Positions 4,371 through 55,280 of a stretch of 64,000 nucleotides of DNA are shown in pieces. Where the stretch lies: assembly GCA_963701085.1 (NCBI GenBank), contig OY969561.1, forward strand, positions 576,001-640,000, given 5' to 3'. This DNA is from an uncultured bacterium (GTDB taxonomy: Bacteria; Babelota; Babeliae; Babelales; Vermiphilaceae). Position 1 is the first letter of the stretch; the number at the start of each line of letters is the position of its first letter. Below the pieces are notes generated by a model. That model had not been told where the DNA came from, made no database searches, and was given only the letters and a program-made list of their open reading frames with translations. The position numbers and the translations under genes were made by a program.

Positions 4371-5291
4371 ATGAAAAAAAATATTATTGTCTTCAACATT
4401 ATCCTTGTCATATCCTCCCACCTAAATGCCATGGAACTACAGATTGCGCCGTGTTCTTTTAAAAACATGCCTGCCGACGTTCTTGATCTCATCGCAAGCT
4501 TTTTAACATTTGATGATATTGAATCAGAAGAAGAATTTATTCAACGAAAAAAAAGCCTTTCAAACTATCCTATAGCTTTCAAATGTGAACCAGTACAATA
4601 TTTCAGAATGACAGAAGAAGGAATATTGGAAGTTTATGCAGAAGAAGTACAGAATCCTAGAGCTCCCACGCAAGAGGAATTTTACAAGAAAAGAACAATG
4701 CCCCTGTCCTGGCTGAAAGAACACAAAAATCTTGTAAACGAACATAATATATATCTTGTTGTATATAGTCCAAATAACACCGTATGCGCCATGACATATC
4801 TAACATATCCAGTCGCCGCAATTGAACAATCTAATTTATCAATTGTTGATACAAAAACAAATCAAGAATTACATAACATTTGTCTTCACCAAAATGGTTC
4901 GGATGAATCTAAAGAAAAACATTTTAAACAAAAATATTTTCAGCACTTGGCCATTTCATCGAGCGGAAATATTTTCGCAACCACTTATATAAAACAAATA
5001 AATGAAAACATTGGATTCCAGATTTTTATGAAAATCCAAAATTTATGCACTCAAAAAAAGGAACGCCCTAATTACCAGTGTCCTGACAATGACGAAATAA
5101 TTGCCTTCAACAAACAAGGAACCCATCTCATTGTGCACGGCAGCACATGGGACTCCTGCACTCATGCCCGTATTCCACAACATACAATAATTCCACTTAC
5201 CACAACATTAGATAATCATATGCCCCCAAAAAAAACATTCATCCACTATTGTGCACAAAAAATGATTTGTAAAAACATAATGCTTCAGTAA
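4371..5291 (+). CDS. Exported F-box-like / WD-like repeat protein, paralog 1
   Basis: Signal peptide ...SHLNA|ME, MPADVLDLIASFL F-box-like motif, beta-strand repeats VVYSPN / LAISSSG / IAFNKQG. Confidence 0.7.
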   Translation: MKKNIIVFNIILVISSHLNAMELQIAPCSFKNMPADVLDLIASFLTFDDIESEEEFIQRKKSLSNYPIAFKCEPVQYFRMTEEGILEVYAEEVQNPRAPTQEEFYKKRTMPLSWLKEHKNLVNEHNIYLVVYSPNNTVCAMTYLTYPVAAIEQSNLSIVDTKTNQELHNICLHQNGSDESKEKHFKQKYFQHLAISSSGNIFATTYIKQINENIGFQIFMKIQNLCTQKKERPNYQCPDNDEIIAFNKQGTHLIVHGSTWDSCTHARIPQHTIIPLTTTLDNHMPPKKTFIHYCAQKMICKNIMLQ

Positions 5292-5303
5292 CAAAAAGTC
5301 TCT

Positions 5304-5391
5304 TGTCCACAGGTTGGGGTTACCCTACTTCGCTAAAAGCGGAGTTCATCCTGAGCTTGTCGAAGGAAAGGGGACGCACCGCCACCGCTAA
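5304..5391 (+). pseudogene. Displaced duplicate of the nth 3' end, interrupted by a roughly 55-nt composite palindromic insertion (about 5325-5379)
   Basis: TGTCCACAGGTTGGGGTTACC[insert]CGCCACCGCTAA = CPQVGVTRHR* versus nth [10 protein letters not shown]. Confidence 0.85.
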
Positions 5392-5409
5392 AATAAGAAA
5401 AAACTACTC

Positions 5410-6240
5410 ATGAAAAAAAATATTATTGTCTTCAGCATTATAATTGCCATATCTTCCCACCTCAATGCCATGGAACTACAGATTGCGCCCTGTTCTTTTA
5501 AAAACATGCCTGCTGATATAATGGATCTCATCGCAAGCTTTTTAACATTTGATGATATTGAATCAGAAGAAGAATTTATTCAACGAAAAAAAAACAGTTC
5601 AGGCTGGATCGAGTGCTCTCAAAATAAACGTCTTAATGAAAAAGAAACTCAATTTTCATTCCTGAAAAACCATATAAATATTGAAAAAGAAGGTGATATA
5701 TTCTTATTTATATACAACTCACATGATACAATATGCGCCACAAAATATCTAACTACACCTGTTAACGCAATTCAAGACCATAATTTATCAATTATTAATA
5801 TGAAAAAAAACAAAGAATTACATAACATTTGTCTACAGCAAGATTTTTGGAATATCTCTAAAAAAAGACATTATGAGCAAGGAAAACGTTATGGGCACTT
5901 GACAATTTCCTCAAGTGGAAATATTTTAGCAATTATTTATACCAAAAAAGTAGATAACGACAATTTTGGATGGAAAAGTTTCATAAAAATTCAAAATTTA
6001 CGCACTCAAACCAAAGAACATCCTGCTTATCCCAATGACATGGGCTGTCATGAAATAATTGCCTTCAACAAACAAGATACCCATCTCATTGTGCACGGCA
6101 GCACATGGGACCCCTGCGCTAATACCCGTATTCCACAACACACCATAATTCCACTTACCACAACATTGGATAATCCACCCAAAAAAACATTCATCCACTA
6201 TTGTGCACAAAAAATGATTTGTAAAAACTTAATGCTTTAG
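5410..6240 (+). CDS. Exported F-box-like / WD-like repeat protein, paralog 2
   Basis: N- and C-termini nearly identical to 4371-5291, divergent centre. Confidence 0.7.
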   Translation: MKKNIIVFSIIIAISSHLNAMELQIAPCSFKNMPADIMDLIASFLTFDDIESEEEFIQRKKNSSGWIECSQNKRLNEKETQFSFLKNHINIEKEGDIFLFIYNSHDTICATKYLTTPVNAIQDHNLSIINMKKNKELHNICLQQDFWNISKKRHYEQGKRYGHLTISSSGNILAIIYTKKVDNDNFGWKSFIKIQNLRTQTKEHPAYPNDMGCHEIIAFNKQDTHLIVHGSTWDPCANTRIPQHTIIPLTTTLDNPPKKTFIHYCAQKMICKNLML

Positions 6241-6266
6241 TAATAGAACGTCATATAAAAACAGAA

Positions 6267-6298
6267 ACCCCTCTACCGTGTAAATACCGTAGAGGGGT
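6267..6298. terminator. Probable bidirectional intrinsic terminator
   Basis: ACCCCTCTAC...GTAGAGGGGT hairpin between convergent genes, with A/T tracts. Confidence 0.65.
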
Positions 6299-6323
6299 GT
6301 GTTTTGTTTTAAAAAAATTTAAC

Positions 6324-6752
6324 TTACAACCTTGCACTCAGGTTAGCATTGTTAGAACACATTAAGGGATGTTGGTGCTGCGTCTTAATATGTCGATTCA
6401 CACTACCCTTGGTGGTAAATTGAGAAGAGCATCCAGGAAATGAACATGTATGCTTCTTTTTACTTATGAGCTGTATGGTCCTGCTGGGTTGCGTTTCTTT
6501 ATTTTGCCTGCTCAATTCTATCTTTGGCATTATCGGTTGTAGTGTCTGCCTAATAGGAACAACATAATTATTGTTATACTGTTCCAACCGACATTCCTGC
6601 AACATTTCCCCATCTACTACCCATAAAAGATTCTGGCTAAACTCAAAATTTGGACTAATCTCAAGTGTGCGCTTCATTCCCTGCGCAGTGTTGCAGAACA
6701 TAAATGGTGAAAGTACTGTTACTATTGTTACTAATTTTTTTGTTATTTTCAT
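6324..6752 (-). CDS. Exported protein with a eukaryote-type C2H2 zinc finger
   Basis: Signal-like N-terminus ending AQG|MKR; HTCSFPGCSSQFTTKGSVNRHIKTQH (C-x4-C-x12-H-x4-H). Confidence 0.75.
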   Translation of the reverse strand: MKITKKLVTIVTVLSPFMFCNTAQGMKRTLEISPNFEFSQNLLWVVDGEMLQECRLEQYNNNYVVPIRQTLQPIMPKIELSRQNKETQPSRTIQLISKKKHTCSFPGCSSQFTTKGSVNRHIKTQHQHPLMCSNNANLSARL

Positions 6753-53424: not shown

Positions 53425-53769
53425 ATGAAAAAAGTAATAATAATATCCACCATTCTCTGTTCTATTACAACCAACAGCATATTTGGCATGCTCCTCAAAC
53501 AATGCCGAACAATAACAGCGCAAAAAAATGTCTCCTTAGCAAGAAAAAATTGCACGAACATAAAACAATTCAACTATGATGAACTTCTATTGCTCATGCA
53601 AAAAGAAAATAGTGATTTAAAAAAAGAAAACCTATTGCTGAAACAAAACATTACATTACTCAAAGAAAAAACCTTACATCAAACATTACAAACTGATGCA
53701 CAACAAACAACTCCCTTCAGAAGTGCAGACAGAGATTTTTACCACAACAACATGAACAAAAATCACTAA
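53425..53769 (+). CDS. Small exported coiled-coil protein
   Basis: Signal ...SIFG|MLLKQCR; heptad repeats. Confidence 0.7.
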   Translation: MKKVIIISTILCSITTNSIFGMLLKQCRTITAQKNVSLARKNCTNIKQFNYDELLLLMQKENSDLKKENLLLKQNITLLKEKTLHQTLQTDAQQTTPFRSADRDFYHNNMNKNH

Positions 53770-53782
53770 TATCCTGAAATTA

Positions 53783-53815
53783 AATAGCGTAACGCTTCAA
53801 TGGCATTACGCTATT
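53783..53815 (+). terminator. Hairpin after ORF
   Basis: AATAGCGTAA...TTACGCTATT. Confidence 0.55.
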
Positions 53816-54102
53816 CACTATTTGCATATAACCCAAATCAAAAAAGTATAGGCATGAAATAATTCGGCCCACAGCTATTATTCAATTTTTTTTGGTTAAA
53901 AATCAAGGTTAATTTTAAACTTTTTGGTCGAAATTCAAGGTTAAGTATCAAAAAAATATTCAATTACAGCTATTTTCCAAATTTCATAACTTATCAATCA
54001 GGCACTCTCGTTCTCATACAACAACATATATAAAAAAACATTGAACAACACATTATTTTTTGTGATACTTAACTAAAATTTAAAACAAAAAAAAGGTTCG
54101 TA

Positions 54103-54489
54103 ATGGAAAAAACAACAACCCTTTTACTCGCAAGCACCTGTGCTCTTACTTTTATCAGCAACTCATTGTGCATGGATGTAGAATTTAACAACAATTCTAG
54201 TAAGCAACGTAATACATCGCAACAAGGCGACACAACCAATACAAGATCAAAAAAAAACAATCAAACTGATAAGTTATTAGAAACAAATAATATATTATTG
54301 TATACGCTCATCATGCAAAATAAGATACATTTTGAATACCAAGATAATATACGGTTTACAACTGACGTGACTATAAATCGTCATGCCAATGATACTAAAA
54401 AAGCACTAGATAACTTATATGTATCATCTAATACACAATTAAACGATAAGTCTTTGCATATTCCCATGACACATTCAACAATCAAATAA
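54103..54489 (+). CDS. Small exported protein
   Basis: Signal ...SNSLC|MDVE, homologous to the leaders of the next two genes. Confidence 0.72.
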   Translation: MEKTTTLLLASTCALTFISNSLCMDVEFNNNSSKQRNTSQQGDTTNTRSKKNNQTDKLLETNNILLYTLIMQNKIHFEYQDNIRFTTDVTINRHANDTKKALDNLYVSSNTQLNDKSLHIPMTHSTIK

Positions 54490-54501
54490 AAAAGGTTCAT
54501 A

Positions 54502-54900
54502 ATGAAAAAAACAATAGCACTTTTACTTATTAACACGTGCTCTCTTACATTCATCAGCAACTCTTTTGGCATGTTAACAAAAACATATTTGGTTCGCACA
54601 ACAGCTACACATAAAAAAATACATTCATTTTGCGCAGACACCATGGCATTACGATTACAACGAGTACAAGTAGTAAGAGCACGTGAAAAAATCAAATCAC
54701 GAAACAATATCTTAAAAGAAAACAACAATATTTTAATGGAGTGTATAACAGAACAAAATAAAGTTATCGATCAAATTGAAGAATGGAATAGCCGTCCCAT
54801 GACAGAGTTCGAATATCATGTAACTGAGTATGACAAAATGACAGCACTTGCACAAAGATTGTTAGAACTAGAACAACAAAAAGGAACTTTATTATCATGA
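54502..54900 (+). CDS. Small exported coiled-coil protein
   Basis: Signal ...SNSFG|MLTKT. Confidence 0.75.
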   Translation: MKKTIALLLINTCSLTFISNSFGMLTKTYLVRTTATHKKIHSFCADTMALRLQRVQVVRAREKIKSRNNILKENNNILMECITEQNKVIDQIEEWNSRPMTEFEYHVTEYDKMTALAQRLLELEQQKGTLLS

Positions 54901-55280
54901 AAAAACTTACTACCCTCTGTCTTATTACCTGCGCACTCACTATCAGTAACAACTCATTTGCTATGTTAACCAAAACATTTTCAGTAAAACAGATTAAAAA
55001 AATAAGATCTTTTCATACGACGAATGCTTGGGACAGGTTAGCTTATAATGAAGCTAAAAATGCTTCTGCAAAAGCTAGCGAAAACAATGAGTTGTTACAA
55101 AAAATTATTAATCAAAATCAAAAAAACAATGAATTATTACGCGCTGTTATTCAACAGAATTACCTACTTTCTCACAGAGTGTATAACAACTATGCGCAAC
55201 GTGATGATAATATTCACTCAAAACTAATTCATTTTCAAGACATGCTCGAAAAAAGATACCATATAAAAATGGGTGAATAA
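54897..55280 (+). CDS. Small exported coiled-coil protein
   Basis: Signal ...NNSFA|MLTKT; ATGA overlap with the previous gene. Confidence 0.75.
   Translation: MKKLTTLCLITCALTISNNSFAMLTKTFSVKQIKKIRSFHTTNAWDRLAYNEAKNASAKASENNELLQKIINQNQKNNELLRAVIQQNYLLSHRVYNNYAQRDDNIHSKLIHFQDMLEKRYHIKMGE

Follow-up and report, generated by a model that had tools for sequence, protein, structure and literature searches.

Thirteen genes of the 64,000-nucleotide window, the whole stretch of DNA analysed here, encode a Sec-type signal peptide that ends in an A/G/S/C site and is followed directly by a Met (Table 1). All of these junctions are seen in the sequence, and the genes fall into 7 BLAST families, in line with an earlier note on this DNA, which had counted 13 genes in roughly seven families; one copy is frameshifted, its signal-peptide frame stopping near 42223 and its body being carried on in ORF 42153-42884. 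Applied to the 29 window ORFs whose N-terminus is hydrophobic, an automatic rule recovers 10 of the 13, and at the rate found for internal hydrophobic runs (3.7%) the probability of 10 or more would be 5 × 10−8. Three proteins that the same note had set apart as lacking the Met, a CtpA-like protease, a Bcp-like peroxiredoxin and a DUF4097 protein, do have signal peptides without it. Among the tagged orphans, family A is predicted from a structural model to adopt a WD40-like partial propeller fold. An F-box identity for this family was considered and gained no support, as no Pfam family matched at E ≤ 0.01 and a fold search with the model returned only WD40-type propellers, matched by its C-terminal part.

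Table 1. Window genes with a Met junction, and three signal-peptide genes for contrast (a slash marks the predicted cleavage site)
Feature	Coordinates	Strand	Junction	Remarks
Tagged, family A	4371..5291	+	...SSHLNA/MELQIAPC	20-aa signal peptide; no Pfam match; helical N-domain, then predicted WD40-like partial propeller
Tagged, family A paralogue	5410..6240	+	...SSHLNA/MELQIAPC	59% identity to the 4371 gene
Tagged orphan	6324..6752	-	...CNTAQG/MKRT	
Tagged orphan	12867..13175	-	...FSIIA/MDKG	ORF opens with TTG; inner Met is the probable true start
Tagged orphan	20589..20903	-	...IPAYS/MENEG	second hydrophobic stretch further downstream
Family A copy, frameshifted	42110..42884	+	AYA/MEMEVKST	third AYA/ME copy
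Tagged, family A	42926..43711	+	MKKHLFIMLSIISMHAYA/MEMEV	structure modelled for this product
Tagged, family A paralogue	43751..44503	+	...MHAYA/MEMEV	
Tagged orphan	52114..52815	+	MKSLFHLSIILMSTMLIISVNSSC/MEKQ	SSC/ME; true start probably an inner ATG near 52189, not 52114
Tagged small orphan	53425..53769	+	...NSIFG/MLLKQ	
Tagged small protein, family B	54103..54489	+	...SNSLC/MDVE	
Tagged small protein, family B	54502..54900	+	...SNSFG/MLTK	
Tagged small protein, family B	54897..55280	+	...NNSFA/MLTK	
Contrast, CtpA-like S41 protease with PDZ	49716..51203	+		signal peptide, no Met at site
Contrast, DUF4097 protein	22481..23419	+		signal peptide without Met
Contrast, AhpC/TSA (Bcp-like) peroxiredoxin	25214..25720	+	...SSFS/VPKK	signal peptide

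The source bacterium is a small, intracellular member of the Dependentiae (TM6), order Babeliales, with a 1.2 Mb genome in one contig of 1237 ORFs. Signal peptides and their cut sites were called throughout this genome with our own hydropathy and −3/−1 heuristics (no charge over 10 aa or more, and a Kyte-Doolittle mean of 2.0 or higher over 9 aa), and all cleavage sites given here are predictions. At least 163 of the 1237 ORFs, about one protein in eight, proved to be tagged; they belong to 113 BLAST families, 98 of which are singletons. Of 476 N-terminal hydrophobic runs, 123 have a Met as the last residue ahead of the first charged one, versus 39 of 1047 internal runs (Fisher p = 2 × 10−35), and a cleavage predictor blind to the +1 position still placed Met there in 99 of 375 sites, the runner-up being Leu with 36. 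The observation of the earlier note is thus borne out, and it extends much further than that note had seen. As to the next residue, Glu occupies +2 in 53% of the tagged set and is preferred about fivefold over Asp (11%), while Asn and Gln (3% each) are not enriched. In the blind-predictor set, ME, MD, MN or MQ starts account for 91 of 143. The information is restricted to these two positions, the KL divergence being at most 0.34 bits from +3 onward. Of 150 untagged signal-peptide proteins, 95 (63%) have a predicted +1 residue from one of the destabilising classes (type 1, type 2, secondary or tertiary), and none has Met there.

The tagged leaders are classical Sec (type I) signal peptides, translated from the upstream Met. 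Their length is 22.1 ± 3.6 aa, within the roughly 15-35 residues of such leaders, and the n-region is basic, with a mean of 1.5 K/R within the first 8 residues; in the tagged hydrophobic runs, position −1 is A/G/S/C/T in 112 of 123 and position −3 is L/I/A/T/V/S in 114 of 123. The signal peptidase I pattern can be written as [LIVAT]-x-[AGSC], then Met, usually then Glu or Asp, and cleavage by LepB at the predicted site would leave Met-Glu as the first two mature residues. Translation from the inner Met, which the earlier note had named as an outcome that would speak against its reading, is not what is seen: a Shine-Dalgarno core precedes 42% of the first Met codons versus 2% of the inner ones and 6% of random inner Met codons, and a G peak lies at −11 to −7 before Met1 of the tagged genes. 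Other kinds of leader were considered and set aside. A lipoprotein (type II) signal peptide would have the lipobox [LVI][ASTVI][GAS]C with Cys as +1; Cys stands before the Met in 18 of 163, and the lipobox fits 1 of those 18. The twin-arginine motif of a Tat signal peptide occurs in 1 of 163. A type IV prepilin (class III) leader is short and charged, is cut between Gly and Phe/Met and has its hydrophobic stretch after the cut, whereas the hydrophobic stretch here precedes the cut, Glu is at +2 and not +5, and Gly is found at −1 in only 31%.

The Met-Glu pair tracks proteins with eukaryotic cytosolic domains. The tagged set includes 24 ankyrin proteins, 9 WD40 proteins and one C2H2 zinc finger, along with PLA2_B, PLD, a methyltransferase, HIT and a second thymidylate kinase. 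Ankyrin and WD40 proteins make up 33 of the 163 tagged proteins, against 1 in a sample of 73 signal-peptide proteins without the tag (p = 3 × 10−5); looked at from the other side, 18 of the 39 ankyrin ORFs are tagged by the rule and 3 more by eye, with a non-Met site in 2. The untagged group holds YidC, FtsW, TolB, secretin/GspD-N, S41/CtpA, thioredoxin and solute-binding proteins, and also probable secreted hydrolases and surface proteins (peptidase A4, GH1, M3, collagen-like). The pair therefore resembles PEXEL/RxLR-type signals in being a short motif at a fixed distance after a leader, present in many unrelated families and absent from envelope housekeeping families. The pair does not follow orphan status, although the earlier note had seen it across unrelated orphans: Pfam matches exist for 48 of the 163 proteins with the tag and for 26 of the 73 without it (p = 0.36).

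The pair is also conserved, and it has arisen in more than 100 unrelated families. In pairs of homologues, Met at +1 is retained in 53 of 61 (87%), +2 in 43 of 61 and −1 in 42 of 61, against 16–44% for the flanks. In a 13-sequence family alignment spanning 25–71% identity, M19 and E20 are among 11 invariant columns. Leaders of different tagged families are no closer to one another (12.7% identity) than tagged leaders are to untagged ones (12.1%). The tag occurs in many genera of the source's family, in part of that family only, and other families lack it. The taste at +2 is genus-specific, with Glu in one genus (g1) and, by eye, Met-Lys in 6 of 21 and Met-Glu in 6 of 21 in a sister genus (g3). 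In other Babeliales, secreted ankyrin proteins bear A, S, T or Q at +1; all 12 of 12 secreted ankyrin proteins from other lineages have a small residue or Gln predicted there (a weak count, paralogues being included), against a destabilising residue in 37 of 90 non-ankyrin signal-peptide proteins.

For export, the genome encodes a single LepB (C1:661033-662004), a single LspA, and Sec together with a type II/pilus-like system, represented by two secretin matches and two T2SSE ATPases. A search for VirB4, FHIPEP, VipB and TolC found no T3SS, T4SS, T6SS or TolC in the genome, so that Sec plus the type II/pilus-like system is the sole export route found. Type II is likewise described as the only secretion system of Babela (PMC4378268).

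Considering these patterns, it is likely that the Met-Glu pair serves as a functional tag of host-directed cargo. As to how it works, the reading that we favour, tentatively and with considerable doubt, is that the pair forms an N-terminus that is stable in the host cytosol without acetylation. LepB would remove the leader and expose Met-Glu as the mature N-terminus, and the pair would act after cleavage, inside the cytosol of the protist host, as an N-terminus that does not signal degradation even though it could not be acetylated there. As in the N-degron and NatB rules, the first two residues would be decisive, Met-Glu and Met-Asp being the main NatB-type starts, next to Met-Asn and Met-Gln (PMC11735805). 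According to the same review, ubiquitin ligases recognise N-termini that start with a small residue and lack the acetyl group, as well as Met-hydrophobic ones, and none is known to bind N-termini of the NatB type in their unacetylated form (PMC11735805). For effectors that need to last, Met-Glu would therefore be the safest N-terminus to expose. There is precedent in a Sec-secreted, translocated bacterial toxin, where the N-terminal residue left by secretion sets cytosolic potency through the N-end rule (PMC3755998). The earlier note had proposed a mark of host-delivered proteins that mimics a native eukaryotic N-terminus, and had pointed to Met-Glu and Met-Asp starts as NatB acetylation substrates. 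The divide that it drew between host-type and envelope proteins gains support from the ankyrin and WD40 content and the untagged envelope proteins, but acetylation by NatB itself is unlikely. NatB is described as ribosome-tethered and co-translational (PMC11735805), working on nascent chains, so a delivered protein, arriving after its synthesis, would bypass it and other ribosome-bound acetyltransferases. Moreover, Asn and Gln are not enriched, the sister genus uses Met-Lys, and other lineages use A/S/T/Q. Some of this also weighs on the stable N-terminus that we favour: Glu exceeds Asp about fivefold, Asn and Gln are equally NatB-type yet not enriched, the rule is confined to part of one family, the sister genus has its Met-Lys starts, and the three Met-Leu genes of the window would be destabilising under the Met-hydrophobic rule. 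Since other Babeliales place A/S/T/Q on secreted ankyrin proteins, eukaryotic N-degron pressure alone does not force Met.

Another means by which the pair could work, possible although we consider it rather unlikely, is as an export address. A putative lineage-specific receptor would read the free Met-Glu in the periplasm after LepB cleavage and pass the cargo on, be it to the secretin/type II-like machine, to vesicles or to some putative translocon, while untagged periplasmic and envelope residents would be retained. That Glu is so strongly preferred to Asp, Asn and Gln suggests a binding pocket, the patchy, clade-limited spread and genus-specific +2 taste fit a co-evolving receptor, and no secretion system other than the type II/pilus-like one was found. 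In Plasmodium, exported and vacuole-resident proteins are likewise distinguished by their mature N-termini (PMC10653839). Two residues, however, carry little information, and the untagged state of likely secreted hydrolases and surface proteins means that the tag would have to say "into the host" and not "out of the cell". Moreover, no type II system is known to read a linear signal at the N-terminus.

Three further explanations were weighed. It is very unlikely that the Met is a fossil start codon, left without function when signal peptides were added upstream of cytoplasmic genes or genes acquired from eukaryotes or viruses. Many cargo domains are indeed eukaryote-like, leader-like peptides may be readily encoded by AT-rich sequence, and the gene of the secreted thymidylate kinase follows that of an untagged paralogue at a distance of about 0.8 kb downstream, its +1 Met falling within 3 residues of the paralogue's start; this Met is nevertheless 3 residues off and not aligned with that start. 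A functionless Met would hardly be the best-conserved N-terminal position, nor would Glu follow it so often when only 4.8% of cytoplasmic ORFs of the same genome have Glu at their second position, and other lineages added signal peptides to the same domain types without retaining Met. An effect on processing, in which Met-Glu at P1'-P2' would tune cleavage by the lineage's LepB, for example so that soluble cargo is released quickly and in full, and would do nothing afterwards, is again very improbable. In its favour, LepB of the source's family matches unbroken over residues ~146-186 where the match to other families is split in two, and some members of the genus have two LepB copies; against it, the envelope proteins without Met are presumably cut by the same single LepB, and signal peptidase I generally tolerates any P1' residue except Pro. 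Dual initiation, with both Met codons used to give an exported and a cytoplasmic form of each protein, is very improbable too. The inner codon is always ATG, although by definition, and some tagged enzymes (thymidylate kinase, methyltransferase) could work in the bacterial cytoplasm, but the Shine-Dalgarno core is rarer at the inner Met than at random inner Met codons, an untagged copy of the thymidylate kinase exists separately, and there is no apparent reason for some 160 host-type proteins to be made in a cytoplasmic form as well.

Rules in which the residues left by signal-peptide removal decide a protein's fate are known from other systems. In the lipoprotein +2 (Lol-avoidance) rule and the lipoprotein export signal of Bacteroidota, one to a few new N-terminal residues set the final compartment after Sec export; there, a lipidated Cys is cut by LspA, whereas the present proteins almost never have a lipobox and their presumed destination is the host. 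In complex plastids, the +1 phenylalanine of pre-proteins decides onward transport across further membranes, although there the setting is eukaryotic, the residue is aromatic and a transit peptide follows. Another likeness is to the Plasmodium PEXEL or host-targeting motif, where a hydrophobic ER/Sec-type leader is cut off; the new N-terminus, whose second residue is acidic or an amide, directs the effectors of this intracellular parasite, hundreds of them, into the host and sets them apart from vacuole residents, and signal-peptidase cleavage giving the right N-terminus suffices for export (PMC10653839). PEXEL differs in being a eukaryotic five-residue motif cut by plasmepsin V and served by the PTEX translocon (PMC10653839), whereas here the organism is a bacterium, cleavage falls at a common type of signal peptidase I site, Met is fixed at position 1 and any translocon is putative. 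Within the same phylum, signal peptides have been reported on 79 of 126 ankyrin proteins of Babela massiliensis (PMC4378268) and on 44% of all CDS of Chromulinavorax destructans (PMC6561590), and the ankyrin effectors are thought to be secreted into the host. The main texts of these two papers contain the word "methionine" 0 times and do not mention the residue after the cut.

Apparently, then, proteins destined for the host cell are marked by their first two mature residues, and as we found no description of a Met-Glu rule in print, the rule seems to be undescribed so far. Whether it also amounts to a bacterial N-terminal residue code, an address that moves more than 150 proteins from the periplasm to the host through a putative receptor or translocon, is a good deal more doubtful. 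If so, a lineage in which no type III, IV or VI system was found would have a prokaryotic equivalent of the Plasmodium PEXEL/PTEX logic, comparable also to the +2 rule of lipoproteins and to the +1 Phe rule of complex plastids. It would be the first case of a linear signal that serves an export step which either depends on type II or is new.

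Predicted secreted proteins of this Vermiphilaceae bacterium (Dependentiae, Babeliales) often carry, directly after the predicted signal peptidase I site, a Met at +1 that is usually followed by Glu or Asp at +2 (the tag). Judged from sequence, the leader in front of the tag is translated and signal peptidase I-like, and the residue pair behind the cut is conserved and tracks eukaryote-type cargo. When all window ORFs were translated, every one of the 13 leader-Met junctions listed in the earlier note was present, 12 of them in intact genes, and their leaders shared one build: basic at the start, hydrophobic in the middle and ending in a small residue directly before Met. 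BLAST placed the 13 genes in seven families, in agreement with the roughly seven proposed earlier: five genes in family A, three small proteins in family B and five singletons. Three of the genes have Met-Leu after the cut, and a Pfam search returned no family above the cut-off for any of the 13. Envelope proteins had been said to lack the tag, and indeed the leaders of the window's CtpA-like S41 protease, Bcp-like peroxiredoxin and DUF4097 protein have no Met; those of its thioredoxin and collagen/BclA protein are likewise without it.

The modelled family A protein at 42926-43711 (pLDDT 70.7, pTM 0.64) has predicted helices at the N-terminus and a beta-rich body. A fold search of the model matched this body to the G-beta, WDR5 and WDR91 propellers at TM scores of 0.2-0.33, which are low because only a partial propeller is present. 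An F-box identity for family A is unsupported, as Pfam gave no family and the fold search gave WD40-type propellers.

Locations of tagged genes and of other features (window, positions in the window; C1, contig of the organism's own genome, G000; a slash marks the predicted cut)
Feature	Location	Strand	Description
Family A genes	window starts 4371, 5410, 42110, 42926, 43751
Family B genes	window starts 54103, 54502, 54897
Frameshifted family A copy	window 42110-42884	+	junction AYA/ME; stop after 37 codons near 42223; body out of frame (ORF 42153-42884); either pseudogene or assembly error
SSC/ME gene	window 52114-52815		start probably the inner ATG (MKSLF...)
PLA2_B gene, eukaryote-type (cPLA2-like lysophospholipase)	window 44536-46281		hydrophobic N-terminal anchor, no tag
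PLA2_B gene, eukaryote-type	C1:471220-472851		leader ...TAQS/MENFF
C2H2 zinc-finger protein	C1:355745-356467		240 aa; tandem eukaryote-type fingers (zf-H2C2_2 E 4e-35); leader ...TSSAT/MEKQ
Thymidylate kinase, plain upstream copy	C1:723590-724231		MPQLTKGILIAIEG...
Thymidylate kinase, tagged downstream copy	C1:725039-725773		leader/MENHKQLNRGILIAIEG...; junction ...FTSHA/MENHK
Cluster of leaderless ankyrin ORFs	C1:513500-520810	one strand	about ten short ORFs (90-310 aa); may be one very large broken ankyrin gene or a cytoplasmic ankyrin array
LepB	C1:661033-662004		aligns in one piece within the family; match to other Babeliales families splits at about query 146-186, which suggests a family-specific insert
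NUDIX hydrolase	window 52779-53342		Pfam E 3e-17; weak Nudt16-like match; leader ...ITNINC/IRRR without Met; may be a secreted Nudix enzyme
Collagen-repeat proteins	window 23497-24456; other ORFs of G000		signal peptides, none Met-tagged; BclA C-terminal domain on one; probably surface fibres
Two small adjoining ORFs	window 25847-26595		resemble a nucleotidyltransferase/HEPN-type pair by eye; such a pair is reportedly present in Babela

The frequency of the tag was examined across the whole genome, a single contig of 1,198,634 bp with 37% G+C, using 1237 called ORFs, none overlapping another and all 60 aa or longer; signal peptides and cut sites were assigned by hydropathy and -3/-1 heuristics and are predictions throughout. 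For the earlier proposal to hold, Met had to be commoner at +1 than background, and it was: it stood just before the first charged residue in 123/476 N-terminal uncharged hydrophobic runs (25.8%), compared with 39/1047 comparable runs inside proteins (3.7%; Fisher p 2e-35). In the 123 cases the next residue was Glu in 89, Asp in 19, Lys in 12 and Arg in 3. Their predicted leaders, 22.1±3.6 residues long with A/G/S/C/T at -1 in 112/123 and L/I/A/T/V/S at -3 in 114/123, fit the classical pattern for signal peptidase I in both composition and length. For the tagged set, motif and position checks ruled out Tat, lipobox and prepilin leaders. A blind predictor that used only hydropathy and the -3/-1 rule placed Met at +1 in 99/375 sites, ahead of the runner-up Leu in 36; the residue at +2 was Glu in 70. 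Together the two screens yielded 163 tagged proteins among 502 ORFs with a hydrophobic N-terminus, which is an undercount, because the screen recovers 10/13 of the window genes.

All 163 tagged proteins were scanned against Pfam at cut-offs of 1e-4 and 1e-5, and 48 had a match and 115 had none. The matches include 24 ankyrin-repeat and nine WD40-type proteins, along with C2H2 zinc-finger, cPLA2-like lysophospholipase, PLD-like, clostripain-family peptidase, methyltransferase and HIT/CwfJ proteins and a second thymidylate kinase; the screen probably picked up an epimerase, a Na/H antiporter and ATP synthase subunit c in error. For contrast, 150 well-formed leader proteins with a residue other than Met were taken, four of more than 1100 aa were dropped and every second one was scanned (73/146). 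The 26 matches among these 73 included YidC, FtsH-like, FtsW, TolB, GspD N-domains, two solute-binding proteins, S41/CtpA, thioredoxin, peptidases M3, M48 and A4, a GH1 glycosidase, glycosyltransferases, three collagen-like proteins, PP2C, a PI3/4-kinase-like protein and one ankyrin protein. Thus, the proposed division between eukaryote-like and envelope-type proteins stands, with ankyrin and WD40 proteins making up 33/163 tagged but 1/73 untagged (p 3e-5). The idea that orphans are the distinguishing class does not, since Pfam-match rates were 48/163 and 26/73 (p 0.36).

The genome's 69 Ank_2 matches mapped to 39 ORFs, with five matches unmapped. Tags were present on 18 of these ORFs by rule and on three more by eye, two had a leader followed by another residue and 16 had no recognised leader, ten of them clustered. 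About 0.8 kb, holding a single ORF, separates the two thymidylate kinase genes; a housekeeping thymidylate kinase has been duplicated, and one copy has been turned into a tagged, predicted exported form.

The same rule was applied throughout to relatives, as tagged over N-terminal hydrophobic ORFs. The ratio of 123/476 in the genome itself was accompanied by 12/43 in 100 kb of a genome of the same genus (G007) and 19/78 at eight LepB-flank loci with LepB at least 62% identical. Other genera of the family gave 2/28 (G012), 1/21 (G017), 1/37 (G018) and 0/24 (G016), other families 4/54 (G028), 1/34 (G023) and 0/42 (G030), and 11 LepB-flank loci with LepB at most 58% identical 4/85; these last three groups sum to 13/325. 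Random 100-kb samples understate the tag, because ankyrin genes show the trait more clearly. Ankyrin ORFs, chosen in relatives either with a short repeat motif or from the coordinates of Pfam matches, had a leader followed by Met in 21/25 cases in G012 (genus g3) when read by eye, with Glu 6, Lys 6, Asp 3, Gln 3 and others 3 at +2. Another 12 genera of the family supplied 26 more ankyrin ORFs, 1-3 each, and in these, read by eye, the arrangement occurred in g2, g4, g8, g30, g37, g59, g61, g62 and g64 and was not seen in g31, g60 and g63. None of 13 ankyrin ORFs in G016 (g7) had Met there (Gln 8, Thr 3, Ala 1, Ser 1), nor did any of five in G023. Taken together, these counts show that the tag covers much of one Babeliales family without being universal.

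The genome encodes a single LepB, LspA, two T2SSE ATPases and two secretin matches; one of the secretin ORFs also bears GspD N0 and Secretin_N domains. VirB4, FHIPEP, VipB and TolC-type OEP had no match in this genome, scored 92.6% complete. More than one LepB copy occurs in G004 and G006, two genomes of the same genus. The Babela genome paper, in its main text, describes type II as the sole secretion system and signal peptides on 79/126 ankyrin proteins (PMC4378268), and that on Chromulinavorax gives 44% of CDS with signal peptides (PMC6561590).

Could the inner Met simply be the true start? The ribosome-binding-site scan rules this out: a Shine-Dalgarno core lies 4-18 nt before the leader's first Met for 42% of the tagged set, where G peaks at -11 to -7, but before the inner Met in 2% (random inner Met codons 6%, first start of non-leader ORFs 23%), and therefore translation begins at the leader. 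Initiation at the internal Met, which the earlier note had raised against its own proposal, is thus not what the genes show; it is also unlikely that both Met codons initiate, that the inner one is a silent fossil start codon or that Met-Glu acts through cleavage kinetics. Met-Glu is not the organism's usual start context either, with Glu at 4.8% and Asp at 1.8% of second positions in 334 cytoplasmic ORFs. A shared, shuffled signal-peptide cassette is ruled out by leader identity anchored at the cut, 12.7% between families versus 12.1% for tagged against untagged; the mature parts form 113 BLAST families with 98 singletons, and the eight cross-family leader pairs at least 50% identical come mostly from diverged paralogues that lie next to each other. 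The Met-Glu pair is under selection. Searches with 28 queries gave 61 homologue pairs with other species of the genus (23-64% identity; paralogues included, pairs not independent); in these, Met(+1) was kept in 53 (87%), +2 in 43 (70%) and -1 in 42 (69%), and neighbouring positions in 16-44%. A 13-sequence family A alignment (25-71% identity to the first sequence) has 11 invariant columns, among them M19 and E20. A sequence logo holds information at -1, +1 and +2 only and none from +3 onward, with Glu 53%, Asp 11%, Lys 7% and Leu 6% at +2 in the tagged set.

We tentatively favour a role on the host side, in which Met-Glu serves as a stable N-terminus in the host cytosol. A protein arriving there after its synthesis would escape acetylation by ribosome-bound NatA, NatB and NatC. 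According to a review (PMC11735805), once NatA/NatC acetylation is lost, small and Met-hydrophobic N-termini become open to ZER1/ZYG11B and UBR-type ligases; NatB is not a main proteostasis factor, and unacetylated NatB-type N-termini have no ligase known to bind them. On this view, Met-Glu would be the safest N-terminus to leave bare. Consistent with this role, the predicted +1 residue is destabilising, by the classical classes, in 95/150 untagged leader proteins. Secreted ankyrins of tag-negative lineages lend weak support, since they include paralogues and the sites are heuristic: +1 is small or Gln in 12/12, compared with a destabilising +1 in 37/90 other leader proteins of these lineages. 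There is also a precedent in a translocated bacterial toxin secreted by Sec, whose potency is governed by the N-end rule (PMC3755998). Counting against the host-side role are the restriction of the trait to a clade, the preference for Glu over Asp, Asn and Gln, the Met-Lys of g3 and the Met-Leu of three window genes. Each of these favours the main rival, somewhat less likely in our estimate, in which an export step of the bacterium itself would read the free Met-Glu N-terminus as an address. Such an address would resemble Plasmodium PEXEL proteins, whose mature N-terminus acts as an export signal; there, a signal-peptidase cut yielding the right N-terminus suffices for export (PMC10653839).

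Full-text literature searches and the main texts of the Babela and Chromulinavorax papers contained no description of a Met-after-cut rule, and the word "methionine" does not occur in these two main texts (PMC4378268, PMC6561590). What would be new here is that bacteria mark host-directed cargo behind the leader, and do so with no more than the two first mature residues. The Dependentiae, obligate parasites found widely in protists, have tiny genomes of which a large share is given to signal-peptide proteins. The two-residue rule could serve as a simple predictor of host-directed cargo, most of it domain-less, and offers a handle on how ankyrin, WD40 and zinc-finger proteins might be delivered into eukaryotic cytosol by bacteria whose export routes are just Sec and a type II-like system. 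It could also be viewed as a natural experiment on the N-termini that eukaryotic cells tolerate on proteins bypassing ribosome-bound acetyltransferases. Each of the two leading mechanisms, if true, would be a novelty among bacteria.
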